A stretch of DNA of 64,000 nucleotides from an uncultured bacterium (GCA_963848635.1 CAWKEA010000006.1:4419-68418); one strand, 5' to 3'; positions 29,556 through 50,527 are shown, counted from the first letter of the stretch. Numbers and translations are program-made. The notes: generated by a model from the sequence alone, not told the origin.

Positions 29556-29640
29556 GTGGATAAAATTATATTAATAAAAAAAATAACGCGATGCCCGTTG
29601 TTCGGCACCAGGTGTTTATGAGCCGATTATACTACATATT

Positions 29641-29714
29641 TTTATTCCGACAAGCGAAAAGCGGCATGGGCGCTTGCGGACATGACGAACGAGCGCAGTC
29701 GGAAGAAAGTAAAC
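29641..29714 (+). repeat. GC-rich intergenic repeat family B, copy 2 (upstream of ppdK)
   Basis: tttattccgacaagcgaaaagcggcatgggcgcttgcggacatgacgaacgagcgcagtcggaagaaagtaaac. Confidence 0.6.
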
Positions 29715-30544: not shown

Positions 30545-32065
30545 TCAAGCCGCAACTACAGCCCGAGCTGTCGATGATTTCGGATTCGGTGCAGGATAGA
30601 ACTTGGCAAGCTTGAGGATAATCGCCGCCCGCGCTTCCCAGGTGGGATTCTTGACCGACCTAGCCAGACGAAGGATGTCTTTCAGCTCGCCGCAAACTTC
30701 GAGCATGCGCAGGACGACGTGCGTCTGAGCGTCACGCTTACTGCCATAACCATCGCTGAAGTGCGTAGCGAGTAGTTCGAACCCATCATTCGGTTCATGG
30801 ATGCACTCCAGAACCTTCTTGAAGCCGAGTACGCGCTGTTCATCCCGTTGCCTTCCGGCCGCACAATTCCAAACCTTGAGCGCATCCGAGAATGCAATGA
30901 CGAACGTGAGCATCTTCGCATAAGCGGCTGTCGAATGAGTGCGATCGAACAACCTGGTGACGGCAGTCCAGTCATCGCCACAGAGTGATAGCCAAATGTC
31001 ATGGGCTTCTCGTTCCTCTTCCGATTCATCCCGCACAAGGCCATAGAGTTGTTCGGCCATGTCGGGATTCGACGCTGTCTCCATCATTTTCCTCCAGCAC
31101 TTCCCTCGGGTTTCAAAGTCACTGGTGGATTGATACATCGCCATCGCTTCGGCAAATGTTTTCGGATCACCCGGCGTAAGCGCTTGATCGATTTTCTTTT
31201 GAAGCCTGTCACTGCTCTGTGGCAGACCCGCGACATCCCCGCGCATGGACTCGAGCTTATCGAGCCCGTTGGTTTTTTCAACCCTGCGGAGGACGATCAC
31301 GTCCAACACCGCATAGACGATATTCTTGTATTCGCCCCCGCACTGACTGCCCTGGTCACGGATGAATGCTCTCAGTTCTTTTTCATTGCGGTTTTTTGAT
31401 TTAAGAAACTTCCTGAAGGCCTCGTACCGGAGATCCTGCGGAATCTGGTCAAGAGCCTTGAAAGCCGCAGAAATGGCCATACGCTTGACCGACTTCAAGA
31501 AGCTGTCCATCAGCCGGGGCAACGCCCTCGACCGGATACTCTTCGTATCTTCATGACCGCCATGATGGGATGTTTTGCTTCCGTGCTGATACAGGTAGAC
31601 AAAGTCCTTGAGAACCTTGGCCAACGGAAACAATTGTTCGAGAATCGCCTCCGGACAACCACCGTAATACAAGTAACCGCGAGCCCTGCATCTTTCAACG
31701 ACGGCGGTGATGTCAGTGAACGTATTCCGGAATGACGCACACTTGATAATGGCCGCCAGGAGGAGATCGGGGTCTTCCAGTCCCTCGCCGGTAGGAATGC
31801 GATCGAAGGCCTTGTCTGCCGATGAGGCATCCTTGGCCGCCGCCACCTCCTCAGTTGAAAGCTCGATCCATTTTGCATGGGCGGCCTTCCAGAGCTTTGA
31901 GTGACGGCCTGCTTTCAAAGAGACTCTCTTCACGTTCTCGATCGAATCGAGAGGCAGAGTGCACACCTCGTACGCCTCTCTCGTGTACCAGAAACCTCCG
32001 CCGAGAGCGCTTTCCAATGCGCTGAAATCAACGGCTGGTACCGCTGGAGTTTTCTTATCATTCAT
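30545..32065 (-). CDS. hypothetical protein (506 aa)
   Basis: Intact GC-rich ORF; no motif recognised. Confidence 0.6.
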   Translation of the reverse strand: MNDKKTPAVPAVDFSALESALGGGFWYTREAYEVCTLPLDSIENVKRVSLKAGRHSKLWKAAHAKWIELSTEEVAAAKDASSADKAFDRIPTGEGLEDPDLLLAAIIKCASFRNTFTDITAVVERCRARGYLYYGGCPEAILEQLFPLAKVLKDFVYLYQHGSKTSHHGGHEDTKSIRSRALPRLMDSFLKSVKRMAISAAFKALDQIPQDLRYEAFRKFLKSKNRNEKELRAFIRDQGSQCGGEYKNIVYAVLDVIVLRRVEKTNGLDKLESMRGDVAGLPQSSDRLQKKIDQALTPGDPKTFAEAMAMYQSTSDFETRGKCWRKMMETASNPDMAEQLYGLVRDESEEEREAHDIWLSLCGDDWTAVTRLFDRTHSTAAYAKMLTFVIAFSDALKVWNCAAGRQRDEQRVLGFKKVLECIHEPNDGFELLATHFSDGYGSKRDAQTHVVLRMLEVCGELKDILRLARSVKNPTWEARAAIILKLAKFYPAPNPKSSTARAVVAA

Positions 32066-32162
32066 AGTCTTTCCTTATTCTTTTGTAGCCTGTCCTTCTG
32101 GGACAGACGGCTTTCTATCCTGAATCTACAATGCCTGTTATACAATGTCAAGCACTACTTCG

Positions 32163-33362
32163 GTAACTCCTCACAACTCTGAGCGGCGCTTGTGGATAAA
32201 TACCTAGATTTCACAAGGGTTTTTTGGTAAAATGAGGGTATAAATGAGAGGTCAATTAAGCAGAGAAAGTAGGCTAGAAATCAACGTCACGAGGCTCAAA
32301 AACAATGCCTTACGGTTTCGCTCCACCATCAAGGAACTGAAACAGGTAATCAAGGAAAAAGACAGAAAAATACTTGAATTGGAAGCAAAACTAGTAGACA
32401 AAGAGTCTCAAAGGAAGGAATTGCTCTCATATCTCTACAAGCCAGGCAAGAAAGATCATACATCAATACCCCGAGGCAAGAAACTTGGCGCTCCCGCATT
32501 CCATAGGCCGATTCCTCCGGAGAGCACTGTTACCAAGGAATATTCATATACCTTGAAACAATGCCCGATATGCAAAGAATCGGTTGGCAAGGTCGTTGAT
32601 ACGGTAATCAAGTATACGGAGGACATCGACCTAAAGCCGAGACCAATGGTTACCAAGCATACCATTACCAGACATTGGTGCTCTCATTGCGAGACGTATG
32701 TAAAAGATCCTAATGTTCCTACGATTACAAGGATCGGAAAAAATGCTCTTGGATACGTTCTCTACGCCAGATATCGATTACGCCTACCAATGGAAAGGAT
32801 CAAGGAAAGCTTGCTTGATCTCTACAACTTCAAAATCTCCGAGGGTGAAATCGTGGCCACGTTAAAGGATGCTGAAGCTCTTTTTGGCAAAGATTATGAG
32901 GCCATCAAGGTTATGATCCAAGAAGCAAAAGCCGTATACGCCGATGAAACAGGCTGGAGAATGGACGGCAAGAATTGGTGGTTGTGGGTCTTTGCAACAA
33001 CCAAGGGTACGCAGTATGTGATTGAAGATACAAGAGGTATTCGACTTCCTTTTAAAGAAAGAATACCCTGATCCACTCGTTGATCTTGTAAAAAACCGCA
33101 TGCAAAAACATCGACCTTTTCTCTTCACTTGCATTGACCATGACGATGTCCTGCCAGAGAACAACACAGCTGAACGTGCCATCAGACCGCAAGTTGTTAT
33201 GCGTAAAATCTTTGGAGGTTCTCGATCATTGGCTGGAGCTAAAGCCCATGAAGTCAATTCCTCCGTCCTCGAAACCCTGCGCAAACAGAATCCGGATACC
33301 AATTTCTTCGATGTCGTAATACCCTTGCTAGAGAAGCGCCGCTCAGAGTTGTGAGGAGTTAC
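32163..33362 (+). mobile_element. IS66-derived non-autonomous element with perfect 29-bp terminal inverted repeats
   Basis: IRL GTAACTCCTCACAACTCTGAGCGGCGCTT (32163..32191) is the exact reverse complement of 33334..33362. The element encloses a degraded IS66 tnpC. Confidence 0.75.
32244..33354 (+). pseudogene. IS66-family transposase (TnpC) remnant: frameshifted and internally deleted
   Basis: N-terminal coiled coil plus zinc finger CPICKE...CSHCE. Start of the DDE domain YADETGWRMDGKNWWLWVF. C-terminal NNTAERAIRPQVVMRKIFGGSRSLAGAKAHE. About 150 aa of the catalytic domain are missing between them. The remnant is split over two frames (32244..33071 and 33022..33354). No tnpA or tnpB. Confidence 0.7.
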
Positions 33363-33559
33363 ATTCGTCCAGGATGTAATTCTTCTAGGATGTATTACCT
33401 GATTTGTCGTTCATTTAGAATATTGGGGAACCGAAAGATGCGACCGATCCGATGGATGGTCGGGATGATAGTAGTGCAGTGGTAAAATGAAGGTGGGGAT
33501 CAAACTTGCCAGAATTAGTAAATTATTCCGCCGACTTTAACTAAATACATTATTGATGT

Positions 33560-34030
33560 ATGATGATTTTGATCGTTCTTCACAAATACACACCTATGAA
33601 TAGTAAAGACGAGTTCGCGAGACTCATAACACTCGCTTCAACCCCTGCGGGTTGGTCAGAGATCGAGGCTCCATTTTTCGATAGTGCCAACGAGGTTGGA
33701 TTCGCATTCGATCTTAACTCACGGAAATACGAGATTGGTAATCCTGGTGACAGCCATATCCAAGCAAAAACGGACCTGCTTCATCGTTTGCTTCACGAGA
33801 TGAGCGCCGCAGAATACGAGAAATCTGAAAAAATGCTTATACAAGGAAGGATGGTGAAATTACCAGGTTTCTCGTTTCCAATCCTTCTGTTGCTTTGCCT
33901 TAATGAAAAAAGTCTTGGGATCATTGAGCCACGAATCTTGGAAATGGGGATTGCCTTGCCAGTCGGGCTACTTTTCTTGAAGAATAACCCGAATCTAGTC
34001 CAGCACATCACATCGAGCACCGCGCTTTAA
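33560..34030 (+). CDS. hypothetical protein
   Basis: 156-aa ORF; no motif recognised. Confidence 0.4.
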   Translation: MMILIVLHKYTPMNSKDEFARLITLASTPAGWSEIEAPFFDSANEVGFAFDLNSRKYEIGNPGDSHIQAKTDLLHRLLHEMSAAEYEKSEKMLIQGRMVKLPGFSFPILLLLCLNEKSLGIIEPRILEMGIALPVGLLFLKNNPNLVQHITSSTAL

Positions 34031-34370
34031 CCAAATCCATTCACTACACAACACCTGCGATTACTTCAATGGTGTTTTTTATTCCTCTTATTTAACAACT
34101 CTGTCCGAGAACTCATATTTTACATAACCCTCCCCGGTAAGAATCAACAAAGCCTCGAACTCTTCGACAAAAGAAAAACCGCCCTAGTGAGCGGTTTTCT
34201 TAAATTTGTTACTTAACACAAGTTTGGTGACCCTAGTTGTCGACGGTTGGAAACAAATGATTAAGGAAATAACGACTTGGAGTAAGTTCAGAAACACAAG
34301 AGATGATAATGTACAATAAAAATTGACATATCTGCTAAATAATAATATATTAATAAAAATCAGTTCCTGG

Positions 34371-35443
34371 CACCTCAACCCCTCAATTTGAACGCTCAAT
34401 ATTTCGATTAAGACGCGCCGCTAGGCGCTGTTTTTGTCTCTTTTCTTTCTCGTATGCTTCATCCGGAGTGAGCGAATTCAATACTCCCATAAATCTCCTG
34501 TTCATCTTCTCCTCTAGCTTTTTGATGAATTCCCTGGAATATTTGGAGATGTCGGATCCTTTTGGAATATATCGCCGCAAACTTTTGTTCAGTTGCTCGA
34601 TTGAAGGCTTCTCCCAAGGGGAATGCTCGTGGCAGAAGTAGATCTTGATTGAGAGTACTTTCTCCAGTCTCTTGTGTTCCAGAAGAAGAAGGTCGTTGTC
34701 GAAAGTGATCGTTTGCATCTCCGGATATCGATTCTTCATGCGTACAAGTGCTCGCTCTACGTTTCTGACGGACACCGGCAAAATCTTTTCCAGGAGATTC
34801 TTTCTTACCTTCCTGTCTCGAAGCCCCAAGACCATTCCTTTTCCGGATTTCCCCGAGACTATGAAGTCTCCCTCGAAGTGACCTAATCCCCAACGCATGT
34901 TGATTTTCATGGGTCTTTTGTCGATCATGCGCTTGTCCTTCAAGCGTTTGCGGCTTCCTTTGCGTCTCTTTCTCTTTCCGAATATCTTCTTCCTGTGAGA
35001 TTCAATCTTTCTTCCGTACGGACTCCGGATATATCTTCTCACGGCCGAGCCGGAGACATACGGCAGGCCCTTCTCGACGTTCTTCAATCTTCTAGCGATT
35101 TCCTCCGGCTCCTGGTCGTCCATGAGATGATACTCGACGAACGCGCGGAGGTCCGGATTGGAGGCGATCTTCTTACCTTCCTTTCTCTTGGCTCTCATGC
35201 GTACGCGCGAGATGTGTCGAGCATATTCCGCGTCGTACTTCCTGCCTTTCCTGCGCTTCTGGAGTTCGTACCAGATACCGCTCTTGGGACGTTTGAAGGT
35301 CTTGGCTATGTCCGATATCGAATGACCTTTCTCTATGAGTATCTCGATGTCTCTGCGGTCCGCGCACGAAAATCGCGACCATTTTCTGTTTTTTTCATGT
35401 GCTAATCATACACGAATCGTTCAAATCTCAAAGACAAATCACC
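34371..35443 (-). mobile_element. IS30-family-like insertion sequence (diverged copy), inserted between the R promoter and the R-ORF start codon
   Basis: Present in R copy A and absent from the otherwise identical R copy B, which is the empty site. CCTGG is duplicated at the junctions. Imperfect terminal repeats contain ATTTGAACG. Confidence 0.8.
34383..35398 (-). CDS. IS30-family transposase (diverged), with the same ATG-A7/-1-frame architecture
   Basis: Same signatures as the other IS30 transposase (GDFIVSGKSG, TFDNDLLL, HSPWEKPSIEQLNKSLRRYIPKGSDIS), at roughly 45% identity by eye. The upstream in-frame HTH (DRRDIEILIEKGHSISDIAKTF) lies in the -1 frame relative to the ATG at 35398, which is followed by A7. 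Confidence 0.75.
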
Positions 35444-35451
35444 CCTGGGGA

Positions 35452-35784
35452 ATGAAAGGACCCCAATATATGGACCGTAAACAAAGAGAAAAGGAAATGC
35501 GTGAGATGTATCCGAAACAGTTCAACCATCCAGAAATAAGGCCGGGTGAAATCTGGCTGGGGGATCAGATCTTTGATTTGGCCATTGCACATCAAATGAT
35601 ATATTCGACAAATGGTTTGCCAAACACCAGGCTCGGGAATCCTTCGCTGAGGGAACGCGAGGGGTGCGGCGATTTCAAGTTTGACTATCGTCCCCTGTTT
35701 GCAGACCTGCAAGAAGTCCTGGCACTCGAAGAAAAGAGTGCTCAGGAAAAAAAGCAAGGACAAGAAATGCCTGGTTCAAGCTAG
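35452..35784 (+). CDS. hypothetical 110-aa protein encoded in repeat R (copy A)
   Basis: MKGPQYMDRKQREKEMREMYPKQFNHPEIRPGEIWLGDQIFDLAIAHQMIY...; identical to 40431..40763. Confidence 0.45.
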   Translation: MKGPQYMDRKQREKEMREMYPKQFNHPEIRPGEIWLGDQIFDLAIAHQMIYSTNGLPNTRLGNPSLREREGCGDFKFDYRPLFADLQEVLALEEKSAQEKKQGQEMPGSS

Positions 35785-36008
35785 AAGATCCACTCAGACA
35801 AAATTCAATATTTTCGACAGACATTGCTGTCTGTCGTTTTTTACCCATTTGTGACCCTATTTAAGGAAAATCTTGAATTTTTGAAGCTCTATCTGAACCA
35901 GGCTTTTTGACGGCGTAATCGCCTTGTGGACGTCGCTCTACAAATAATCTTTTTGGTTTACTCATATACTAGAAGCGTATCACCTAAAACAGATATTAAC
36001 AATGAAAA

Positions 36009-38285
36009 CTATTTTTCTTCTTTGGTTATCTCCTTCCAACTATCTTCAGCTATATCTAAATTTTTCTTAACTTGCTCATCTTTAGATTTTTTAAGGTTGG
36101 CAAGTCTCTTTCCTAATGGGTATTTTTCCAGATTTATCCACAACCATTTTCCCTTAACAGCATAATCAAGCCACTGAGCCTGTTGGATTGATTCGAGCTT
36201 TTCAATCTTGGCTATTAGGGCATCCATTAACTCATTCGCATAAGCCTGTGGTGGTGCAATTATTTGGAACGAGGCATCATTAATAATCTGCGGAAAATTA
36301 TCTACGAGTATTACCGTATGTTTTGGTAAAATTTTAGGCCAAACAATTTCAGGTGAGCCAAGCTTATTGGTTACAAGGAATTTGAGTGCTTGATTGAGAA
36401 TACTGAAATCCTGAGCCGCATCAATCTTTACAAGAATCCTCTCCTCAATATCGACTCTCTTCCATGGGGCATCTTTTTCATCTGACTTCAAAATGGCCCA
36501 TGAGGTAATCTCTTGATTCAGGGCACTGATTTCATCGAAGATTTTCGTTTTCAATAAATTATCTCCGTCTTTAACATAATTTTTGATGATTATATATCGA
36601 TTTTTTCTTGCCTCAACATTTGGATCTTGCACTAAGTTATCAATAAGTGATGTCTTAATAAGACCGATCTCTTCTTGGATTTTTTCTATCTTCAACTTGG
36701 AAAAACGATCGATCATTAAATTAAGGGCTTCAATTGAATTTCGCCCATAGTAATCCTTAAGCCAATTAGCAATAAAGTAACTCTTGAAGGACCCTGCATT
36801 TTCCATTTTGATTGAGTTGAATTGATCAAGATCAATCGATGAAAATTTTAGTTTAAAGAGACCAGAGACGGTATCATCATTAAAAGAATCTAACCACTGC
36901 CAAAAAATATTCAGGATCTCCATCTTGGGATTCGGTGCTATATTATTGAGAAAACTATAGTCAGTTGGGGCTAATTTTTCTGCAAAAATCTTATGAGTAG
37001 GAACTTCCGATGGAAGGTCAACCAAGGCCATTAACAATGTCTTTAGAAAGTTAACTTTTGTTGGTTCGGCTACAGAAGGTGCCAGTTGTGTTATAAAGCC
37101 TGTAACACCATCAGTTGCCCTTGTAGGTCCCATGGATGATAGATGAGCACGTACCTGGACGGGGTCTCCAGTTCTAATGGCTTCCATAAAGTCCTCGCTC
37201 GATGGTCCACGCTGATCACCAAAACTCGTATCTGCGGCGAGAGAAAGATAGGGTTGAAGATCGAGTACTTTAAGATTCGAACCATTATAGAAATGCGGCT
37301 CTTCATATATAAACCTTTTCAGAAAATTCTGTTGGCTAAAAGACAAATCAGCTTTATTTTTTTCAACTACTTCATTGATTTGCGACGTATCTTTTTTCTC
37401 TACAGCATACTCAAGAGTACGAAGAATCTCCGGATCAACTACTATCTTGTCAAAAAGGGGTGCGCATAATTCCTGGATCACAAGAATACGAACAACGAAT
37501 AGTGGATTCTTTAGCATTTCTTTGAAATATGCTGCTCTTTTTTGATCGGTGTCCTCGGACTTCTGTTTTACAATTTGAAATGTGAACAGTGTCGTATCTA
37601 TGAACCTAATTATTTGCCTAAAATTACTTTCAAAATATTTGCTCAGATAGTTTGAAAATTTTGTTTTCTGGGCATCGTCTGAAAAAAACTCTTGGAGAGC
37701 TTCCGTATGTTTACCGAATTCGCCAGTGATAAAAGCATCGATGTCTTTTTTGATTGGGAGAGGTAAACGCCAATAAACATTGAATATCTTTTTCAGAAAT
37801 CTCCTGCCCTCTTCTAATTGCTCTGGTAGAAGACTGTCAGGAAGTAAATCTCTTCCAAGATAACCTTCTAGAACTGTCTGATCGCCAGTTACCACAAAGG
37901 TGATTTCTTTTTTATCAAAAAAAGTCCTGAGATTATCTAGAACATCCCTTGCCATTCCCGGTGTTACTCGATCAAGATCATCAACAAAGATAATCACTTT
38001 TTTCTGTTTAGTGCGAAAATGATCCAGTCTCTTATTTAGAAGATCATCAAACCTGTCCATTGTAACAATCGCATGATCAGTCTTCTGCGTCACAGTAATA
38101 CTTTGAATCACAGCTAAAAAGATCGGGATAATCAAGGTCACAAAGAAAAATTTCCACTGTACTGAAAGATTGGTAACAAAATTAAATAGTGGGCCATAAG
38201 TAAAAATTAAACAAATAACCACTAAGAAAAAATACCAGCCAGGAGAATAACTCCCAGTTAAGGATATTTTTTGAGACATCGACAT
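36009..38285 (-). CDS. KAP-family P-loop NTPase, main body (TM helices plus Walker B DDLDR plus C-terminal region)
   Basis: N-terminal hydrophobic helices precede KKVIIFVDDLDRVTPGMARDVLDNLRTFF. This is the Walker B / DDLDR signature with the membrane insertion typical of KAP NTPases. The Walker A segment lies upstream in another frame (next feature). Confidence 0.6.
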   Translation of the reverse strand: MSMSQKISLTGSYSPGWYFFLVVICLIFTYGPLFNFVTNLSVQWKFFFVTLIIPIFLAVIQSITVTQKTDHAIVTMDRFDDLLNKRLDHFRTKQKKVIIFVDDLDRVTPGMARDVLDNLRTFFDKKEITFVVTGDQTVLEGYLGRDLLPDSLLPEQLEEGRRFLKKIFNVYWRLPLPIKKDIDAFITGEFGKHTEALQEFFSDDAQKTKFSNYLSKYFESNFRQIIRFIDTTLFTFQIVKQKSEDTDQKRAAYFKEMLKNPLFVVRILVIQELCAPLFDKIVVDPEILRTLEYAVEKKDTSQINEVVEKNKADLSFSQQNFLKRFIYEEPHFYNGSNLKVLDLQPYLSLAADTSFGDQRGPSSEDFMEAIRTGDPVQVRAHLSSMGPTRATDGVTGFITQLAPSVAEPTKVNFLKTLLMALVDLPSEVPTHKIFAEKLAPTDYSFLNNIAPNPKMEILNIFWQWLDSFNDDTVSGLFKLKFSSIDLDQFNSIKMENAGSFKSYFIANWLKDYYGRNSIEALNLMIDRFSKLKIEKIQEEIGLIKTSLIDNLVQDPNVEARKNRYIIIKNYVKDGDNLLKTKIFDEISALNQEITSWAILKSDEKDAPWKRVDIEERILVKIDAAQDFSILNQALKFLVTNKLGSPEIVWPKILPKHTVILVDNFPQIINDASFQIIAPPQAYANELMDALIAKIEKLESIQQAQWLDYAVKGKWLWINLEKYPLGKRLANLKKSKDEQVKKNLDIAEDSWKEITKEEK

Positions 38286-38529
38286 CTAATTTTTTTAGCT
38301 CATGCTGATTACTCAGACTATCTTCAATATTATCGCTATCAGTCTTACGATAGAGAATTCTTATGAAATTTCTTAAAAATGATATTCTATCTACAGAAAA
38401 TTTCCACGGGTTAATATCAAAAAATTCGAATGAAGGGTCAAGCTCCTTTAGATACTTCTTTAGATCATTTAGAAAATGGGTCTTGCCTTCACCCCATTTA
38501 CCAGATATGCCAAAAATAAATGAGCCATC
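38286..38529 (-). pseudogene. KAP NTPase N-terminal Walker A segment, out of frame with the main body
   Basis: The minus strand encodes ...FGISGKWGEGKTHFLNDLKKYLKEL..., a GxxGxGKT P-loop. ATG at 38529 is in the +1 frame relative to it; a T5 to T6 change would fuse them as MAHLFFGISGKWGEGKT. A second 1-nt shift separates it from the ORF starting at 38285. Confidence 0.5.
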
Positions 38530-38691
38530 TTCCTTTTGATGTCTTCAAGCTAAGGTCTTTCCGATCTCTTTTATAAATGGGGTTCGATTATCCACAGAAC
38601 ATAATTTAACCAAAAAAATTATGTTCTGTCTATCTTATCAACTAAAATATTTCTTACTTCCTAACCGAAGAAAGTACAGTCCCATATACGG

Positions 38692-39438
38692 TCATGATAC
38701 ACCAGAAATTTCTAAAGAGCTTATAATCCTCCCCTCCTTTTCATGATCTAGTTTATAAGGAATCGAATCCTCTTCAAAACCAAACATCCTATAAATCGGC
38801 TGTATTATTTCATAAGTGATCTTTCCAAGAGCGGCGCGGTCATCTTTGAATTGAGTTGTGTCAAAAGAGAGAGTAAACTCATTTTCGCCCCCTTTCCAAT
38901 ATGCTTTACGAGTATTAATTTTCATAGGTCTTATATCTCCATTGACTAAATAATGCTTATCTTTTTGTAACCCAGCAAAACCTACCAGACATTCGACTGT
39001 GGGCCCTGGATTCTTGATATCTTTTAGAACCCTATTGAAAGCTATGACTGTATTAAAAGTAAACTCGATAAGGGCAAGCGGGTGTATCCGTGATTGATTT
39101 GTCTCAGCCAAAGCCTCTCCGGCACCCCAACAGAGAAAGTTTGAGATGAGTGCTCCTTGGACGATCAGAGTGCCATTATCTTTCACCTGGATCCTCTTGA
39201 AGTTATTTTCCGACTCGATACCGTGCAGATTGATTTGATAGCCGCCAGGCATTTCAAGATCCCATCCATGATGACGCAAGCGAAACGCTTTCTCGAAATC
39301 AGACTTCAAGCTGCCTGGTTCGTTTGAGAATAGCGTCTTCACAATATTAGAGTTAGAGCCTTGAGCGGCTTTTACAGAAAAGACCATGTAATAGAATGGT
39401 TCTGGAAAGACTGTTCCTTTTAGAGGTAGCGTACTCAT
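38692..39438 (-). CDS. hypothetical protein (248 aa), middle gene of the putative defence-like operon
   Basis: Intact ORF; no motif recognised. Confidence 0.55.
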   Translation of the reverse strand: MSTLPLKGTVFPEPFYYMVFSVKAAQGSNSNIVKTLFSNEPGSLKSDFEKAFRLRHHGWDLEMPGGYQINLHGIESENNFKRIQVKDNGTLIVQGALISNFLCWGAGEALAETNQSRIHPLALIEFTFNTVIAFNRVLKDIKNPGPTVECLVGFAGLQKDKHYLVNGDIRPMKINTRKAYWKGGENEFTLSFDTTQFKDDRAALGKITYEIIQPIYRMFGFEEDSIPYKLDHEKEGRIISSLEISGVS

Positions 39439-39483
39439 AAATATTTTTTGTAGTCCTTTATGTTACCGAATCTATCATACTCT

Positions 39484-40095
39484 TCAAATATCTTTTTCGT
39501 AGACTGGCCTGTCTGCTCTGATCAGCACGTCCAACTTGCCGTCCATTGAAACAAGGTGACTTTCGTAGTGCTGGCCTCGCCGGAGAGTTTCGTGGATCTG
39601 CTCGATGTGTGTGGCAGTGCCATGCTCCCCCGTCCTTGAATAATAGGCGAGATAGTCCAAGTTGTCTCTGCTGAGTTTCACCAGATATGGTCTGTCTCCG
39701 AGATCTTGGGGTATTTCGATATACAGCACATCTTTGCCATCTAAAATGCCGTATCGAATGTCGAATCTGACCTTGGGGTATACGTGATTTTCCAGATGCT
39801 GAGTGATTGTTTGTAAGTTTATTTTTGCCTTGTCAACACCCACCACATGATCAATTATTTTGTGAGGGCTGTTAGGCGCAGGTGTCTCAGCAATGCCAAC
39901 TATGATAAAGCCACCTCGTCCGTTCGCAAAGGCGCTGACATCCTTGCATAGTTCCCTCTGCTCTTTTTCAGAGCCGAGATCGTATAGCCGCTCTTTTACA
40001 TCAAGAATGGCGTTCTCGAGCTTTCCTTTGACGACCGAAAAATCTCCGGACTTGAGCATTTTCTGAAGATCATTGTATGTGTAGGAGTGTTCCAT
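39484..40095 (-). CDS. AlbA_2 / Schlafen-like ATP-dependent DNA-binding domain protein
   Basis: The segment VVKGKLENAILDVKERLYDLGSEKEQRELCKDVSAFANGRGGFIIVGIAE matches the AlbA_2 pattern (E..K......AFaN..GG.i.iGv.d). Confidence 0.55.
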   Translation of the reverse strand: MEHSYTYNDLQKMLKSGDFSVVKGKLENAILDVKERLYDLGSEKEQRELCKDVSAFANGRGGFIIVGIAETPAPNSPHKIIDHVVGVDKAKINLQTITQHLENHVYPKVRFDIRYGILDGKDVLYIEIPQDLGDRPYLVKLSRDNLDYLAYYSRTGEHGTATHIEQIHETLRRGQHYESHLVSMDGKLDVLIRADRPVYEKDI

Positions 40096-40283
40096 AATTT
40101 CATTTTGGACACTATTTTACCACACTTTTTTGTCTTTTTAACCTAAAATTGGGCCGACACAGCCGATCTAGAAAACGGCTCTAAACCGTTGTTCCAGAAT
40201 CCTCAGTTCGAGACCCGGAAGGGTGCTCGATTACCGGGCAAAAAATTTGGCTTAAAATAAGGGCAACTGAGTCGGCCTTGAGT

Positions 40284-40864
40284 GTGACCCTAGTTGTCGA
40301 CGGTTGGAAACAAATGATTAAGGAAATAACGACTTGGAGTAAGTTCAGAAACACAAGAGATGATAATGTACAATAAAAATTGACATATCTGCTAAATAAT
40401 AATATATTAATAAAAATCAGTTCCTGGGGAATGAAAGGACCCCAATATATGGACCGTAAACAAAGAGAAAAGGAAATGCGTGAGATGTATCCGAAACAGT
40501 TCAACCATCCAGAAATAAGGCCGGGTGAAATCTGGCTGGGGGATCAGATCTTTGATTTGGCCATTGCACATCAAATGATATATTCGACAAATGGTTTGCC
40601 AAACACCAGGCTCGGGAATCCTTCGCTGAGGGAACGCGAGGGGTGCGGCGATTTCAAGTTTGACTATCGTCCCCTGTTTGCAGACCTGCAAGAAGTCCTG
40701 GCACTCGAAGAAAAGAGTGCTCAGGAAAAAAAGCAAGGACAAGAAATGCCTGGTTCAAGCTAGAAGATCCACTCAGACAAAATTCAATATTTTCGACAGA
40801 CATTGCTGTCTGTCGTTTTTTACCCATTTGTGACCCTATTTAAGGAAAATCTTGAATTTTTGAA
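40284..40864 (+). repeat. 581-bp direct repeat R, copy B (uninterrupted; empty site for the IS30-like insertion)
   Basis: Identical to copy A minus the IS. It begins TGTGACCCTAGTTGTCGACGGTTGGAAAC and contains the promoter at 40380..40408 (TTGACA-N17-TATATT). Confidence 0.85.
40431..40763 (+). CDS. hypothetical 110-aa protein encoded in repeat R (copy B)
   Basis: Identical to 35452..35784. ATG lies 23 nt after the -10 element. Confidence 0.45.
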   Translation: MKGPQYMDRKQREKEMREMYPKQFNHPEIRPGEIWLGDQIFDLAIAHQMIYSTNGLPNTRLGNPSLREREGCGDFKFDYRPLFADLQEVLALEEKSAQEKKQGQEMPGSS

Positions 40865-40926
40865 TGAAACATTTGGAAACGCAAAGCTAGAGTCTCAACA
40901 TCCTAGAAAGGATTAACAAGTTGGCA

Positions 40927-41475
40927 CTAATTCAAAACGACACGTAATTTCGGCCACTTTTTTAGCCAATTCTTACTTTTAACTCTAGTATAAAAAATCC
41001 CAAGGTTTTCTCTATGACTAGGACTAGGTCTGACTATCAAATTAACAAGGTCGCTAATTCCGTGTGGTGCAATTATTTTAGGCTCTCCGTCTACCAGGGT
41101 TACTGCCACACAAGTAGGTGTTTCTACCCACTCTGATAGTGCATCAGATGTATTTTTATATGGCATTTTTCTGCTATGCCACTTGTGGGTATATGATTGA
41201 TTCACGATTTCCCAACTTAATCCCAGTACACCTTTCATTTTGCCTGAAAGCTTCTTGTCAGATTCTTCTGTGTTTTTTTCATCAAAATAAACCAGATCAA
41301 TATCATTGGTGTCGGCTATTTCTCTTTTTATATTGTGAAGCTTGTCCCAGACTTTATTCCTTAAAAAACCTGCTCCGATCATCCAGTCTGGCAAGTTAAG
41401 CTTGTCTGCTTCATAAAGGACATTCATCATCCACCTGTCTTCTTTAATCATTAGAATCAAATCAATTTCATTCAT
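40927..41475 (-). CDS. nucleotidyltransferase-fold protein (NTP_transf_6/DUF925-like)
   Basis: MIGAGFLRNKVWDKLH...TNDIDLVYFD has a GxGxxRN...DIDLVYFD pattern characteristic of that minimal nucleotidyltransferase family. Confidence 0.5.
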   Translation of the reverse strand: MNEIDLILMIKEDRWMMNVLYEADKLNLPDWMIGAGFLRNKVWDKLHNIKREIADTNDIDLVYFDEKNTEESDKKLSGKMKGVLGLSWEIVNQSYTHKWHSRKMPYKNTSDALSEWVETPTCVAVTLVDGEPKIIAPHGISDLVNLIVRPSPSHRENLGIFYTRVKSKNWLKKWPKLRVVLN

Positions 41476-41548
41476 ATTTAAAGTATAACAGAATTCTGAA
41501 CACCAGTGAGGTATACTGAAAAAACAATATTGTTAGCCTGGAAAAACC

Positions 41549-41620
41549 TGTGACCCTAATTAGAGCTGATTGGAACTAGTTGATCAAGGAGATGATACTT
41601 TGGCAAGAGTTTAGGGCTCG
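41549..41620 (+). repeat. third copy (diverged, ~65%) of the R 5'-end motif TGTGACCCTA...GGAACTAGTTGAT...
   Basis: ctgtgaccctaattagagctgattggaactagttgatcaaggagatgatactttggcaag aligns with the first ~70 nt of R. Confidence 0.5.
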
Positions 41621-41624
41621 GTTG

Positions 41625-42140
41625 TTAAATAACTCTTATAATCCCATTATCCGCATCTACTTCAATTTGATCTCCTGTCGTAAGGATTTTAGAGGCAAAT
41701 TTAGTGCTTATTATGCAGGGCTTGTTCATCTCTCGAGCAACAATAGCCGCATGACATGTGATACCGCCTTCATCTGTGATAAACGCTATCGCATCAGAAA
41801 AATAGGCGGCTAATTCAGGACGTGTCATGGGGGTTACAAGAATATAATTTTTCTCATCGCCCAAGACTTTTTTCGCGCTCGGATAATCCTCCTCTGACAA
41901 AACAACAACTCGACCGGATGCTTTGCCTTTATGAGCGGTCTTACCCTTGATAAAGCCCAGTTTTCTAGCCTCCTCAATATTTTCTATTTCCCTATCCTGC
42001 TGGTGTAAAAAATCAGCAATCGGTCTAACTAAATCATCGGTCAAAATAGAAAGTTTGTTATCGATCAGGACAAAGGCTACGGGACGGTTTTTAATTGCAA
42101 ATTTAATAACCGATTGATTGCCTTTGAGCAACTCGACCAA
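41625..42140 (-). pseudogene. 3' fragment of a PEP-utilizing enzyme (mobile phosphohistidine domain only)
   Basis: GGITCHAAIVAREMNKPCI is the PEP-utilizers signature. The N-terminal ATP-grasp / PPDK_N part is absent. The fragment abuts the R-end-like motif. Confidence 0.6.
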
Positions 42141-42580
42141 TTCCCCAAAAGCGTATCAATCAGCTGGAACTCAATGAACGCCGAAAGAAGAAGATACGCG
42201 AAGACTTGGCCTATCTGAACGCCAATAGGCTCTCGCTCCTCAAAACGGGCGCGTATACGCCGGAAAAGCTCGTATCTGAGGAAACTAACCTCAACATCGA
42301 ACTCACTGTTCTGTGCGAAACGGAGATGACCTCCGATGCCTCTATGAGAGAGACAATCAAAGAAGTAGTAAAACTTTCCGAACTCATCAAAAACCTATTG
42401 CCTCATTACTCGTTTGCCAAACCTGAACAGAAAGACAGAATGATACGAATTATTTTTTCCGAACTTACCTTGTCCGAAAATACGTTGCAATATAAGTGTA
42501 AAAAAGGATTTGAAGCCCTTTCTAGTCGTTTCATTGCCTCTTGTGACCCAAGTGGTCAACGGTTGGAAACACATAGGTGA
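42128..42580 (+). CDS. hypothetical ORF (probable gene fragment; no ATG, TTG at 42206)
   Basis: The open frame begins right after a stop at 42125-42127. It runs through the fourth copy of the TGTGACCC motif (42542..42600), which supplies its C-terminus. Coiled-coil-like (LELNERRKKKIREDLAYLNANRL). Confidence 0.3.
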   Translation, partial: ATRPIPQKRINQLELNERRKKKIREDLAYLNANRLSLLKTGAYTPEKLVSEETNLNIELTVLCETEMTSDASMRETIKEVVKLSELIKNLLPHYSFAKPEQKDRMIRIIFSELTLSENTLQYKCKKGFEALSSRFIASCDPSGQRLETHR

Positions 42581-42600
42581 GGAGATAAGACATTTTCAGC
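42542..42600 (+). repeat. fourth copy (~75%) of the R 5'-end motif
   Basis: tgtgacccaagtggtcaacggttggaaacacataggtgaggagataagac. Confidence 0.5.
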
Positions 42601-42611
42601 TATTCATCACA

Positions 42612-42650
42612 TAGAAAAAGCTCTGCAAAACTTTCGAAATGCAGAGCCTT
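42612..42650 (+). terminator. hairpin terminator
   Basis: GCTCTGCAaaactttcgaaaTGCAGAGC followed by CTTCTTTG. Confidence 0.45.
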
Positions 42651-42871
42651 CTTTGAAGATACGATAGCGACTATAGGAGCGCGAAGCAATGCGAACGGGA
42701 GCGTAAGGCGCGCGGCAATACCCTGTAGAAGCGGACATGCTCGCGCTTCCATTGGTTATTAAGCACCACGGACATTATCCGCGACCGTGTACGGCTTGGC
42801 TCGCCACAAAATTATCATCACCATTTCTTGCTCAAACTCTGCTCAACAAATTTCTAATATTCATCAAAAAA

Positions 42872-42905
42872 AAGGGTACGATTTTACTCGTACCCTTGAG
42901 GGGAG
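42872..42905 (-). terminator. rho-independent terminator for the small minus-strand gene
   Basis: Minus strand: GGGTACGagtaaaatCGTACCC followed by TTTTTTTT. Confidence 0.55.
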
Positions 42906-42925
42906 CTTGGAGACTTTTGCCGCCC

Positions 42926-43108
42926 TTACTGATTTCGGCGAAAAAATCTCTTAATCCTGCCGATAAGGCGATCCAAGGCATCAGGATTTTCGGCTGCTTT
43001 CCGGCGTTGCTCTTGTTCTTGCTCAATCAAGGCGTTATATGCCTCGGGATGCCTCCGAGCCAAAGCACCTCTCTCATACTCTTGTTGATCTAAGGGGTGA
43101 GTAAACAT
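42926..43108 (-). CDS. small charged helical protein (60 aa)
   Basis: The ORF is followed by a strong terminator. It sits at the head of the aaRS-paralog cluster but is divergently oriented. Confidence 0.35.
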   Translation of the reverse strand: MFTHPLDQQEYERGALARRHPEAYNALIEQEQEQRRKAAENPDALDRLIGRIKRFFRRNQ

Positions 43109-43201
43109 ATCAATCCCTCCTTTCTGAAAAGAATCTTAACACACATTTGCCGAGTATCACAATAGATTTTATTTGATGTCATTTAGCAGTATAATGGTAT
43201 T

Positions 43202-44320
43202 ATGATCGACAAATTTTTTGAAGACGAATTAAAGCTTGCAACAGATGATGCGAATGTGTTTACTTCGCTCAATAGTCAACATATTCTTCGACCACCTTCA
43301 TACGATCCGAATAGATATATTGATGATTTGGTCAACAATAAATATTTTGCTGCCCTTACAATTTTAAGACACCACATTAAGCGCGCGAGTGACGAATATT
43401 GGTCAGGTGTCGGGGCAAAAAATATTGATTTGTTCATGATGACACCCAGCGCATCTTCCCCTATGGGGCCTGGATCTGATTCTGAAGTCATAACTATTCA
43501 ATTTGGAGATAACAAGACCAATCTTACCGACTCATCTCAATTCGGATTTGAGCCACTTATGTTTCATTTTGATAAAGTTTACTGCTACCTTCCATCAATG
43601 CGTGGAGAAAATCCGGATGCAAGACACCTCAATCAATTTTTTCATTGCGAAGCAGAAATTGTTGGTACTCTAGAAGTTTTACTACCAATCGTTGAGGGCT
43701 ATGTGCGCGCCCTTTCTCAAATACTGATTGCCCTCACACCAATAGTTAAGCTTATGAGTATTGACTTTGATAAGACAAATTCTACATTACAATCTATTAT
43801 TTCTTCAAATTCTTTTCAGAGAAAAACTTTTGATGAGGTGTATCCCTGGCTGCAACAAAATCCATCTTTTTACACGAAGAATGATTTTGGCAGAAATATC
43901 ACAAATTCCGGAGAGATAGCACTTGCGGAACATAATGGTGAAGGATTACCTATGTGGCTATGCTCTTATGACAGAGATATTGTGCCATTTTATCAAAAAC
44001 CAAATCCTGCTGATCCAAACATAGTTATTAACGCGGACTTATTATTTAATCCGATCGTTAAAGGAGGTTTTGGCGGCGAAATCGTTGGTTCTGGACAGCG
44101 TCAAAACATACCCGAGGAAATAGTTGAATCCATGGGTAGACAACAGGTTGGGATTGAGCCATACGAGTGGTACATAAACTTGCGCAAGTATCCACATTAC
44201 AAAATTACGTCAGGATTCGGACTTGGTATCGAGCGTTTTATAGCCTGGGCACTTGGATATCCAGATATTAAAGATGTAATTCATTATCCACGACTTAAAA
44301 ATATTAAAACATTACCTTAA
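43202..44320 (+). CDS. class II aminoacyl-tRNA synthetase catalytic-core paralog, AsnA/AsnRS-AspRS-like (no anticodon-binding domain)
   Basis: PSMRGENPDARHLNQFFHCEAEI is a class IIb motif 2 (compare AspRS [20 protein letters not shown]). ESMGRQQ...EPYEWYINLRKYPHYKITSGFGLGIERFIAWALG contains motif 3 GLGIER and parallels E. coli AsnA SSMGIRVD...GGGIGQSRL. 372 aa is catalytic-domain size. Confidence 0.7.
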   Translation: MIDKFFEDELKLATDDANVFTSLNSQHILRPPSYDPNRYIDDLVNNKYFAALTILRHHIKRASDEYWSGVGAKNIDLFMMTPSASSPMGPGSDSEVITIQFGDNKTNLTDSSQFGFEPLMFHFDKVYCYLPSMRGENPDARHLNQFFHCEAEIVGTLEVLLPIVEGYVRALSQILIALTPIVKLMSIDFDKTNSTLQSIISSNSFQRKTFDEVYPWLQQNPSFYTKNDFGRNITNSGEIALAEHNGEGLPMWLCSYDRDIVPFYQKPNPADPNIVINADLLFNPIVKGGFGGEIVGSGQRQNIPEEIVESMGRQQVGIEPYEWYINLRKYPHYKITSGFGLGIERFIAWALGYPDIKDVIHYPRLKNIKTLP

Positions 44321-44337
44321 TATGAAAAAAGAAATAT

Positions 44338-45167
44338 TTGACTCATTTTTTAATCCCTACTCAAAAAACGGTTGACGATGTCGCTACTGTGAGTGCGTTT
44401 TGGAGATTATCAGACGAGATTATTACAAAAATAATTCAACAGGAAATTGCACCGTACTGCACGAATGAATCGTTGATAATGGATGCTGGCGGAGGGACTG
44501 GTCGTTGGGCAGTAAAGTTAAGTAAATTCTTGAAAGGTAAAATTGTGGTCTTTGATCGTTCAAAGGATATGCTCGCCAAGGCGCGGGAAAATATCGAACA
44601 TGGAGGTGCTTCTGACCGAATCAATATTGTTGAGGGAGATTTAACAAACATTGAGCATTTCAAGAATGAAAGCGTTGATCATATTGTAAGTATCTACAGT
44701 CCCCTGAGTTTTATCTACGAACAAACAAAGGCAGCCCAAGAAATGCTTCGTATTTTGAAGCCGGGTGGTCGAATACTTATTATGAGTCATGGGCATTTCA
44801 ACGCAATAGCATCAAAAATAAACAACTACAAAGCTAGTTTGAAAGAGCTGAAAAATCTTTTGGATACACGAATGGTCAAATGGGCACCGCCATGTCCCCA
44901 GAACTAGTAACTCATTCTAAAGAATCCATTGAGAAACTATTTTCGGGTGTCGGCTTTCAAATTATCAAAACATACGGTGTTCCTGTGTTTGTTCAACCCG
45001 GAAACGAAGACTTTGATCCAAACAATAGAAAGAAGAGTGGGATAAGTGAATACATAGAGGATACTGATAATTTTGCATCAATACTCGAGCTCGAAATGAA
45101 GTATAACTCTTTAGACGCGGTTGCTAATCGCGGCATGAATATTTTTATGTTAGCCGAGAAGAAATAA
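44338..45167 (+). CDS. class I SAM-dependent methyltransferase, frameshifted in an A5 run (~44851-44855)
   Basis: Motif I MDAGGGTGRWAVKL; post-II ILKPGGRILIMSHG. The C-terminal part continues in the -1 frame (44880..45167); one extra A in GCTGAAAAATC joins the two. Confidence 0.7.
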
Positions 45168-45171
45168 TCCT

Positions 45172-46068
45172 ATGAAAATATCAACACTTACACAAAAATA
45201 TCCATGGCTTAAACATGAGAATTCCATAGAAGAATATTTACCACCGGAATACTATAAACAACTACTTCGCCAATATACATTTAATGGAGCTTCTGATCTT
45301 CAATTACTTGAAAATTTCCTAAAAAATAAAACAGCTTCAAATATCTTAGAACTTGGTTGTGGAAGTGGTAGAGCCTCAAACATTGCCGTCTCTCTTATCC
45401 CGCGAGCTGCATACACTTTTTCTGATTTAAGTGAACGCATGCTTGATACCGCGAAGAAACACTTACCTCCCAAATCATCTTTTGTTATAGCTGACGCTAT
45501 TGAATTTATGGAGAGGACAAATGAGCAATATGATTTAATATATACACTTTGGAGCTTCTCACATTCTACTCATCAACATATACATCGTCTGGGGATAGAA
45601 AATGCGAGACATTACATCTCTTCAGTAATTAAAAAATTCGTTAAGGAAAATATAAGACCCGGTGGCTCATTCTTCTTGATTCATTTTGATTCACTTTCTG
45701 ATGAGCAACGTATTCTTATGTCCCAGTGGAAACGTATATTTCCGGCATTTACAAACACCGAACAGCAGAGTCCTTCAAAACAAATTATCGATCATGTCCT
45801 GTTAGATCTCGATAACAATGATACGATAACTCTGTCTATTGATCATATGCATGGTGATCCTATTGTCTATGCAACAGAAAATGATATGCTGGAAACATTC
45901 ATGAATTTTCATTTAGAGACTTACTTTAATACCTCGCCTGCTGTTGCTGATATCGTAGAGGATATTAGGTCTCAGGCTGAAAGATATCGGAACATAGACG
46001 CTTCGTATGCAATCACTCCCGGATGCTATATGTATTCATTTATTAAAAATCAACAGACAAAGTTATGA
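45172..46068 (+). CDS. class I SAM-dependent methyltransferase
   Basis: ILELGCGSGRAS (motif I) and DLIYTLWSFSH. Confidence 0.75.
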   Translation: MKISTLTQKYPWLKHENSIEEYLPPEYYKQLLRQYTFNGASDLQLLENFLKNKTASNILELGCGSGRASNIAVSLIPRAAYTFSDLSERMLDTAKKHLPPKSSFVIADAIEFMERTNEQYDLIYTLWSFSHSTHQHIHRLGIENARHYISSVIKKFVKENIRPGGSFFLIHFDSLSDEQRILMSQWKRIFPAFTNTEQQSPSKQIIDHVLLDLDNNDTITLSIDHMHGDPIVYATENDMLETFMNFHLETYFNTSPAVADIVEDIRSQAERYRNIDASYAITPGCYMYSFIKNQQTKL

Positions 46069-47105
46069 AAAATATGGAGAAACTGAAAAAATTACAAAAA
46101 AGAGATAAAGTCGCGGTACTCTCACCGTCATTTGCAGCACCTGGACGATTTCCTCACGTATTTGAGCTTGGTTTGAATCGTATACGCAGAGTGTTTGAAT
46201 TGGAGCCAGTGGAATATCCCACGACGAGGAAATTAGGCGCCAGTGCTGAGGAGCGAACACGCGACCTTATAGCCGCCTTCGAGGATCCGGAAATAAAAGC
46301 GGTCATTGCTAGTATTGGTGGAGATGACCAAGTTACATACATATACAAAATGTCTCCAGATCCATTTGTAAATAATCCGAAACCATTCCTTGGATACAGC
46401 GATAATTCACATTTCTGTAATTTTCTATTTCAACATAACATTCCATCATATTATGGAGCATGCGTAATGACGCAGTTTGCAATGCAAAAAGAAATGGATA
46501 AATATACAACGGATCATATCCGCAACGCGCTATTTGATACGGGTGAACATGAAATCTTACCTTCATCAGAATACAATGAGGTAGGTCTCGATTGGAGCGA
46601 TTCTTCACTTCTTACTACCCGACGCATCTATGAACCAAATACCGGATGGGTATGGGATACACCATCTGATGGAGAAGGTATTTTATGGGGTGGTTGTCTC
46701 GAATCAATTGATGACATGCTCCGAAACAACGTCCCAATTCCTAATCTTGATGAATTCGGGAACATCATCCTTTTATTCGAGACATCAGAAGAAGTGCCAT
46801 CGCATGGGTATGTGCAACGAGTTATCCGATCTCTAGGTGAACGAGGAATTTTGCAGAAAATTCGAGGTGTGCTTGTTGGTCGACCAAAAGCCTGGGAATT
46901 TGATAAACCATTCACCAAAGAAGAACGAACAGCGTATGTGAAGAGTCAACAAGAAGTCATCCTTGAAGCAGTGAGATTGTATAACAAAAACATACCAATC
47001 GTACAAAACATGAATTTTGGTCATACCGACCCACAGATACCGATGCCATATGGAGGGAGAGCAAGAATCGACTCAAATAATAAGAAAGTATTTGTCTGTT
47101 TTTAG
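46065..47105 (+). CDS. peptidase S66 family LD-carboxypeptidase (LdcA/MccF-like)
   Basis: VAVLSPSFA...AVIASIGGDD...GYSDNSHF (nucleophile Ser in GYSD) and the overall 346-aa size fit S66. Overlaps the upstream methyltransferase gene by 4 nt. Confidence 0.8.
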   Translation: MKNMEKLKKLQKRDKVAVLSPSFAAPGRFPHVFELGLNRIRRVFELEPVEYPTTRKLGASAEERTRDLIAAFEDPEIKAVIASIGGDDQVTYIYKMSPDPFVNNPKPFLGYSDNSHFCNFLFQHNIPSYYGACVMTQFAMQKEMDKYTTDHIRNALFDTGEHEILPSSEYNEVGLDWSDSSLLTTRRIYEPNTGWVWDTPSDGEGILWGGCLESIDDMLRNNVPIPNLDEFGNIILLFETSEEVPSHGYVQRVIRSLGERGILQKIRGVLVGRPKAWEFDKPFTKEERTAYVKSQQEVILEAVRLYNKNIPIVQNMNFGHTDPQIPMPYGGRARIDSNNKKVFVCF

Positions 47106-47107
47106 AA

Positions 47108-47140
47108 AAAAAGGCCGGAGGATTTTCAAATCCTCCGGCC
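47108..47140. terminator. bidirectional hairpin terminator between convergent genes
   Basis: AAAAAGGCCGGAGGATTTtcaAATCCTCCGGCCTC. Confidence 0.6.
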
Positions 47141-48298: not shown

Positions 48299-48343
48299 TT
48301 TGACCTCCTATTTGTTTTGTTAAGGAACGGCTTCAAGACCACC

Positions 48344-49440: not shown

Positions 49441-49498
49441 CCTTGAAACTGAGTATATCTATAGCACAAATACATCTTTTTGTACAGAGTCAGATGGG

Positions 49499-50343: not shown

Positions 50344-50527
50344 TCAGATGGGTACTCTACTAAACATGGAAAATGGAAAAGTTTTGAAACCAAGCCTGAA
50401 ACTCGTCTCCGTTTCCAAAATTTGATCTTTAAAGAAAATCTAGAATTTTTAAATGAAACATTTGGAAACGCAAAACTAACGCCTATTTACAAGCTATATC
50501 AATCATACTTGACCGATAAATCCCAAT

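Follow-up and report, generated by a model that had tools for sequence, protein, structure and literature searches.

A split Schlafen pair and a neighbouring KAP NTPase gene, probably two independent defence-type modules, in a repeat-bounded segment of an uncultured bacterium

We analysed a 64,000-nucleotide stretch of DNA from an uncultured bacterium (GCA_963848635.1 CAWKEA010000006.1:4419-68418; the whole stretch is called the window). It contains a 4.4-kb segment of three genes, encoding a Schlafen/AlbA_2 protein, a 248-residue partner protein and a KAP-family P-loop nucleoside triphosphatase (NTPase). The segment probably holds two independent defence-type modules side by side rather than one three-gene system. 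The first is a pair formed by the Schlafen/AlbA_2 protein and its partner; the second is the KAP gene which, judged from its relatives, is also likely to be an independent single-gene module. We infer a defence role for both modules; publications of 2025-26 described such a role for the families to which they belong. What is new here is that the pair is split over two genes and that its partner family, which combines with several effectors, is unannotated. Current ideas are thereby extended and none is overturned. The features of the segment are as follows.

35886-40283: defence-type segment, 4.4 kb, between the copies of repeat R, with three minus-strand genes
39484-40095, minus: Schlafen/AlbA_2 protein, 203 residues, putative RNase effector (PF04326, E=1e-15)
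38692-39438, minus: partner protein, 248 residues, putative sensor or regulator, unannotated family
36009 to about 38613, minus: KAP-family P-loop NTPase gene, disrupted (PF07693, E=3.8e-29, 102 bits)
38594-38629: perfect inverted repeat between the partner and KAP genes, 14-bp stem and 8-nt loop
38547-38545, minus: TGA stop within the KAP frame, 13 codons ahead of Walker A; the independent contig L005 has GGA (Gly)
38227-38232, minus: T6 run in the KAP gene, where L005 has T5; +1 frameshift in the first membrane segment

Layout of the segment

A preliminary description of this DNA had placed the segment exactly between two repeat copies. Self-comparison of the window confirms this: repeat sequence that is 100% identical ends at 35885 and restarts at 40284, at the exact borders of the segment. 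The open reading frame (ORF) map likewise bears out three genes in the same direction on the minus strand. The gap between the AlbA_2 and partner genes is 45 bp, and that between the partner and KAP genes about 80-95 bp.

The putative Schlafen-type effector and its partner family

The AlbA_2/Schlafen label proposed earlier for the 203-residue protein is supported by the profile search, which scored 58.7 bits against a Pfam gathering cut-off of 25.3, and both the sequence motif and the Schlafen fold agree with it. The protein contains Ex4(E/D)xK, defined as the catalytic motif of Schlafen RNases (PMC13056530), in the form E27-NAIL-D32-V-K34 (ENAILDVK). Residues E27 and K34 are invariant in 15 aligned split and fused relatives, with D or E at position 32, and the motif lies within the first 80 residues in 37 of the 41 fused-size relatives. 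An AlphaFold model (pLDDT 84) was compared with the PDB using Foldseek. The top 18 matches were all SLFN5, 11, 12, 13, 14 or bacterial AlbA_2 structures (E 1e-5 to 2e-3, probability 0.97-1.00), with modest query TM-scores of 0.31-0.43. The protein is of the Schlafen type and, by analogy with studied members, most likely a tRNA-cleaving RNase effector. Its polypeptide stops after the nuclease domain, and the equivalent of the sensor domain is found in the next gene.

The product of that gene has 10 close homologues among the 5.8 billion proteins of a word-index search. When a profile was run against 1.84 billion cluster representatives (50% clustering), the family grew to 380 members at E<=1e-3. 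Among the best 150 of these 380 representatives, 86 are stand-alone proteins of 190-270 residues and 41 are of fused size (421-500 residues), with the partner domain at the C-terminus. The N-terminal domain of 40 long members, supplied by a single alignment (A5), was SLFN_AlbA_2 in 36/40 and TIR in 2/40. Another long member, P0068, lies outside this alignment and was scanned separately; it has a PLD-like N-terminal match below the Pfam cut-off. In P0141, the partner domain follows an N-terminal HTH_17. Because the AlbA_2 and partner proteins of the window can each be aligned over their full length with one half of the fused relatives of about 460 residues, the pair is, on alignment evidence, a split form of a Schlafen-plus-partner protein. 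Schlafen, TIR and PLD effectors are thus exchanged on a constant domain, which therefore fits a sensor or regulatory role; the partner would be a subunit of this kind rather than an enzyme-specific accessory.

The predicted structure of the partner (pLDDT 89.7, pTM 0.90) comprises two halves, each with a β-sheet packed against a long helix. In the first half, the secondary structure elements follow an order that a TATA-binding protein (TBP)-like fold would allow, and TATA-binding proteins recur only among the weak Foldseek matches of the model (E at least 0.03, TM at most 0.28). TBP-like domains are among the listed Schlafen fusion partners and account for 1.5% of the family (PMC13056530). A TBP-like identity of the partner domain is thus no more than hinted at by the model.

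Bacterial Schlafens fused to sensor domains protect against phage by tRNA cleavage, and 97% of catalogued prokaryotic Schlafens (pSlfn) are fusions (PMC13056530). The window pair shares with the studied pSlfn (RorSlfn5 and EcoSlfn7, PMC13056530; 'Cash', PMC13462974) the AlbA_2/Schlafen nuclease with its Ex4(E/D)xK motif and fold, a further, variable domain with a presumed role in sensing infection, and a defence-island-type setting. It differs in that the sensor candidate is a separate downstream protein, whereas it belongs to the same polypeptide in that 97% of pSlfn. The partner domain also has no relative in Pfam or the PDB, and is distinct from the Ig-like, DUF262, histidine-kinase and Csx15 domains of the studied pSlfn. 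While every characterised bacterial Schlafen is a fusion with a sensor, this locus points to a large unannotated partner family which, to judge from the 86 stand-alone proteins among the best 150 representatives, works with Schlafen mostly in trans. Should the partner sense phage, it would be a portable sensor, independent of effector type, and the two-protein version would ease the experimental separation of sensing from RNA cleavage.

Conservation and genomic context of the pair

We compared 16 related loci, which comprise 12 informative pair loci (L001, L002, L004, L007-L014 and L021) and four KAP loci (L015-L018). In all 12 loci with readable upstream DNA, the partner gene is immediately preceded by an AlbA_2 gene, whose stop codon often overlaps the start codon of the partner gene by 4 bp. 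L003, at a contig edge, has only a truncated AlbA_2 fragment. The named hosts of pair loci include Patescibacteria and Gaiellaceae. Identity to the two window proteins declines in parallel, from 47/53% in L001 through 40/40% in L008 and 31/36% in L012 to 29/25% in L014. The upstream neighbour of P0015, a distant stand-alone partner, also fits the AlbA_2 profile (99.8% probability) and contains ENNIFEAK. The KAP gene is absent from all 12 informative pair loci. The preliminary description had allowed that the set of three genes might be conserved nowhere else; this holds for the triad but not for the AlbA_2 and 248-residue genes, whose gene order marks them as a strictly conserved unit. Because this adjacency is conserved, fusions are common and the partner is fused to TIR and PLD as well, we read the pair as a split effector and sensor or regulator.

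Relatives of both modules adjoin restriction-modification and other defence genes, in line with the defence-type character first proposed for the segment. In L002, type III Mod and Res genes flank the pair on both sides (PADLOC, 6e-155 and 4e-95). In L012, the pair has a type II restriction enzyme gene upstream and Ppl downstream, and large serine recombinases are found beside the pair in L006-L009. Other pair loci have small unknown ORFs or nothing recognisable as a third gene. A search of viral contigs for relatives of the pair found none.

The arrangement in L002 (3369-8489) is also seen in L003 and L004: the pair lies between mod and res, all on one strand and separated by gaps of a few bases. 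This suggests that the type III mod/res genes and the Schlafen pair are co-transcribed in these three loci.

By analogy with RorSlfn5 (PMC13056530), the partner protein would keep the Schlafen RNase silent. Binding of a phage-derived cue by the partner would release the RNase, which would then cut tRNA in the anticodon arm; translation would stop and the phage burst would fall. The trigger, the tRNA target and the phenotype are all carried over to this pair from that analogy.

The KAP NTPase gene and its lesions

The KAP label is also supported by profile search, and all features named for the protein in the preliminary description were found: Walker A (GISGKWGEGKT), Walker B (VDDLDR) and, between them, hydrophobic segments at about residues 114-138 and 147-169. 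These membrane segments are a hydropathy estimate, based on 19-residue Kyte-Doolittle means above 2. The C-terminal region of about 520 residues has no domain match. Translation could start at GTG 38595 or TTG 38613, which gives a product of 861-868 residues once both lesions are reverted. Once repaired, the protein can be aligned over 99-100% of its length with its homologues, whose full length is about 850 residues; 186 homologues were found, and the named ones are mostly from Patescibacteria. The four KAP loci represent three independent contexts, as L017 and L018 are one stretch in two assemblies. KAP directly follows hsdR of a type I restriction system in two of these three contexts, and the Schlafen pair is absent from all four loci.

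The KAP relatives in L016 (467-8556) and L017/L018 (1-8538), which are 50-57% identical to the window protein, lie right behind hsdR on the same strand in Patescibacteria. This recurring hsdR-KAP association may be functional.

Among PADLOC models, the KAP protein matches PifA (1.3e-16), PDC-S20 (7e-14) and QatA (3e-12), each over parts of the NTPase core only. With EF_KAP and its relatives (PMC13552941) and with PifA of the F plasmid it shares the KAP NTPase domain with Walker A and B, membrane helices inside that domain, a long C-terminal region without known domain, and a stand-alone gene on mobile or defence DNA. The PifA match, however, is confined to some 70 residues around the P-loop, only the family of about 850 residues has this C-terminal region, and the window gene is disrupted. 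QatABCD and PDC-S20 have only the NTPase core in common with it, with weak to moderate matches, and there are no QatB-, QatC- or QatD-like neighbours, both adjacent proteins being without a PADLOC match. Single-gene membrane KAP defence has been validated in Enterococcus, where it needs the Walker B motif and the C-terminal region (PMC13552941). By analogy with EF_KAP (PMC13552941), the window protein would be an NTPase anchored in the membrane, with its ATPase motif controlling a C-terminal effector region. The gene adds a well-populated family, with named members mostly in Patescibacteria, to these newly validated single-gene KAP defences.

The KAP ORF on the map consists of the 3' 758 codons. 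Translation of 38100-38700 in all frames located the N-terminus, including Walker A, in another frame. The gene had been thought to be split by two frame changes; instead, it contains one in-frame TGA and one extra T. Phase variation, suggested earlier, is unlikely, as the run is only T6 and the TGA stop would persist anyway. As read from its sequence, the KAP allele assembled here is inactivated by the stop and the frameshift.

L005, a contig assembled independently from the public run ERR10755936, covers window positions 39517-37885 with 99.8% identity and is intact at both lesion sites. It shows three differences: at 38547 it has G where the window has T (GGA Gly vs TGA stop), it has the shorter T run, and at 38588 it has G where the window has A (Ser vs Asn). 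L019, from the same run, matches window positions 40835-44363 (3.5 kb) without mismatch, so that this strain, or one very close to it, must be present in ERR10755936.

These data leave two accounts of the lesions. The gene may quite conceivably be intact in the organism, with the stop and the frameshift introduced as consensus errors during assembly. In favour of this, the run that yields GGA and T5 also yields a contig identical to the window over 3.5 kb, one of the lesions is a change in homopolymer length typical of long-read error, and the resolution of perfect 0.6-1.1-kb repeats in the window contig suggests a long-read assembly. We nevertheless lean towards real variants, because two of the three differences are substitutions and because about 30 kb of flanking housekeeping genes keep long unbroken ORFs, so that the general indel rate is low. 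The ends of L005 moreover fall outside repeats, which would fit co-existing variants. As real variants, the window and L005 would form a natural pair of broken and intact KAP alleles.

The inverted repeat at 38594-38629 overlaps both candidate start codons of the KAP gene and marks the break between the modules. This palindrome could act as an operator or as a structure that occludes translation.

Alternative readings of the segment

Several observations weigh against two independent defence modules. The three genes are co-oriented and close together in the window, so co-transcription and functional cross-talk between the pair and the KAP protein are possible. About 30% of prokaryotic Schlafens are not linked to defence (PMC13056530), and the pairs in L001, L013 and L014 have no recognised defence neighbours. 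Comparison with PADLOC models, proposed in the preliminary description, gave matches for the KAP protein but none for either protein of the pair; the partner also has no match in Pfam, NCBIfam, PHROGs or PDB sequences, and its model gave no significant fold match in Foldseek searches of the PDB and of viral models. Finally, the KAP lesions could be the assembly errors discussed above.

As for the pair, it is unlikely, though conceivable, that it constitutes a toxin-antitoxin or addiction module, in which the RNase would be the toxin and the 248-residue protein a constitutive inhibitor, stabilising the island without any phage sensing. The tight two-gene operon, its overlapping stop and start codons and its location on mobile or island DNA beside serine recombinases would fit such a module, and a locus with a relative of repeat R (L020) carries HicA and Fic modules. 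However, stable fusions are common, with Schlafen in 36/40 fused-size relatives, which is unusual for a labile antitoxin. Like the sensor domains of defence proteins, the partner occurs in fusions with TIR and PLD effectors as well, and it is larger than the effector and encoded downstream of it.

Less likely still is a housekeeping or regulatory role, for example in RNA processing or nucleic-acid binding, which would resemble that of AlbA_2 domains fused to HTH or histidine-kinase-like domains. The share of Schlafens outside defence, the three pair loci lacking defence neighbours and the N-terminal HTH_17 of one partner-domain protein would fit such a role. The family is, however, sporadic and rare (10 close homologues among 5.8 billion proteins), it lies in a low-GC island, its neighbours include restriction-modification genes and Ppl, its partner domain occurs in TIR and PLD fusions, and its catalytic motif is conserved.

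The weakest alternative, a single three-gene system with KAP as membrane sensor or motor of the Schlafen pair, could call on the common orientation and short gaps of the genes within one repeat-bounded segment, and on the role of KAP NTPases as subunits of multi-gene systems such as QatABCD, to which there is a weak QatA match; it is very improbable and, on the loci compared, largely refuted by the lack of co-occurrence (0/12 informative pair loci with a KAP relative, 0/4 KAP loci with the pair), the more so as KAP relatives are full-length and stand alone in other contexts, a perfect palindrome (14-bp stem) and a promoter-like site lie between the pair and the KAP gene, and the pair is intact while KAP is broken.

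Repeat R and the IS30 insertion

The segment is bordered by the two copies of R, one of which contains an insertion sequence (IS).

40284-40864, plus: repeat R, right copy, contiguous 581 bp (self-comparison, 100% identity)
34227-34370, plus: repeat R, left copy, first 144 bp, equal to 40284-40427 (100%)
35444-35885, plus: repeat R, left copy, last 442 bp, equal to 40423-40864 (100%)
34371-35443, minus: IS30-family element splitting the left copy, about 1.07 kb, with transposase at 34383-35198 (NF033563, E=2.3e-46)

The segment had been described as bracketed by two 581-bp direct repeats. Their identity is complete; only the right copy is contiguous, the left being interrupted by the IS30 element. 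Because this element, with its 5-bp target duplication CCTGG, interrupts R, the left copy is an R copy that later received the IS. The insertion cuts off the R promoter from the R ORF. R has a near-consensus promoter (TTGACA-17-TATATT, 40380-40408), an ORF of 110 residues (40431-40763) with one homologue in the whole protein collection, and a terminator hairpin with a 9-bp stem (40794-40815). From these predicted elements R is a small complete promoter-ORF-terminator unit and not an IS or a transposon arm.

A composite-transposon-like layout, raised in the preliminary description, was rejected: R encodes a 110-residue orphan ORF and no transposase, self-comparison found no inverted repeat of 30 nt or more relating the R ends, and the sole IS lies inside one R copy. 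The recombination-prone layout put forward with it holds, as direct repeats expose the segment to deletion. The stretches of 144 and 442 bp that remain since the IS insertion would permit loss of the 4.4-kb segment by homologous recombination.

The only R homologue lies in L020, an unrelated contig from another sample; it is 74% identical over 567 bp and is flanked by two full copies of the junction motif described below. The genes around it differ from those in the window: an oxidoreductase is encoded at one end and HTH-Fic at the other. L019 breaks off 30 bp into R, the point at which branching of a k=31 graph would be expected, which provides independent evidence for two different right-hand neighbours of R in the reads. 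The sequences thus point to R as a mobile or exchangeable unit that was probably duplicated recently. In tblastn searches of the fetched loci, among them those carrying serine recombinases, neither the R ORF nor a 124-residue ORF at 42206-42580 had a match.

Another IS30-family element is present in the window as two 100% identical copies of 1097 bp (11974-13070 and 48344-49440), which encode a 272-residue transposase. It is only about 75% similar to the element that splits R, over a short stretch.

A junction motif at the R borders

A short motif recurs at the left edge of R and between nearby genes.

41549-41612, plus: junction motif D3, about 50-65 nt, starting TGTGACCC[T/A]A
34226-34290, 40283-40347 and 42542-42606, plus: further full junction motifs
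35851 and 40830, plus: short junction motifs, the form at 40830 lying 35 bp before the R end

All six copies of the starting pattern in the window are on the plus strand between 34227 and 42543; its GTGACCC core has one extra copy, on the reverse strand at 9032. R starts with a full motif, and the left edges of the R duplication and of the motif coincide exactly. The motifs also set apart a nucleotidyltransferase gene (40927-41475) and a PEP-utilising-domain gene (41625-42140) from their neighbours. In L020 they are found at 2438-2500 and 2972-3034, around the R homologue. Exact-pattern scans of viral contigs and JGI metagenomes gave no copy of the motif.

Three identities for the motif were considered and rejected. 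Read in reverse complement, the 3' end of tRNA-Glu is similar to the start of the motif, but a tRNA 3'-end relic is not supported, as there is no T-arm and no tRNA match even at a permissive threshold. It could be read as a coding 3' end (CDPS..RLET..*) closing the 124-residue ORF, for which plasmids, PHROGs, NCBIfam and Pfam gave no match; the other copies, however, have stops 4-6 codons upstream, and two lack the terminal stop. A structured RNA or attC-like hairpin does not fit either, as no consensus structure was obtained on either strand and the consensus folding energy is about 0.

The arrangement is reminiscent of integron cassette arrays. Common to both are a short motif in one orientation at the junctions of single-gene units, with R duplicated here and a homologous R unit between the same motifs in another genome. 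Unlike those arrays, the window has mixed gene orientations and a motif without a conserved hairpin, and no integrase of any kind, nor any recombinase domain, was found among the scanned ORFs of the 64-kb window. Because the edge of the R duplication is the edge of the motif and the L020 R unit lies between two motifs, one might speculate that the motif is part of a cassette-exchange platform of an undescribed kind, which moves the R unit and the defence segment between genomes and has left the R duplication as a site-specific footprint. We consider this improbable.

Island setting and additional observations

The segment lies within a low-GC stretch at about 32000-50400, in which GC content is 37-44% compared with about 50% outside. 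This stretch ends near a tRNA-Glu gene (50528-50602, minus) and holds IS66-like, IS30 and IS1595 elements. A further pair of direct repeats lies in this region.

40839-40889 and 50428-50478: 51-bp direct repeat, copies 92% identical; the first overlaps the right end of R and the second lies about 50 bp from the tRNA-Glu 3' end

These repeats bracket about 9.5 kb of low-GC DNA and are possibly remnant attachment sites of an island, marking an old boundary. The IS66-like element (32163-33362, 1.2 kb) has perfect 29-bp terminal inverted repeats and lies at the left edge of the low-GC island; its transposase frame is split into overlapping ORFs (32244-33071 and 33022-33354).

Five genes at 43202-48298 encode a paralogue of the AsnRS/AsnA-like class II synthetases (372 residues, far below equivalog cut-offs), two S-adenosylmethionine (SAM) methyltransferases, an S66 LD-carboxypeptidase and a weakly HisRS-like protein of 385 residues. 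The S66 peptidase family includes microcin C immunity enzymes. These genes may form a small cluster for a peptide-nucleotide antibiotic or for immunity.

A dispersed repeat of about 63 nt is found on both strands in the higher-GC part of the window (18131-18193, 29639-29703 and 63791-63853). It also occurs in L020 at 1-30, which suggests that L020 comes from a related organism. Finally, the T4SS_pilin family is common in Patescibacteria, and the ORF at 4122-5516 has a weak match to it (26.4 bits, against a cut-off of 26.6). Together with the taxonomy of the nearest KAP and pair relatives, this weakly hints at a patescibacterial host. This ORF contains about four tandem 138-bp repeats (4677-5219) with 90-97% identity.

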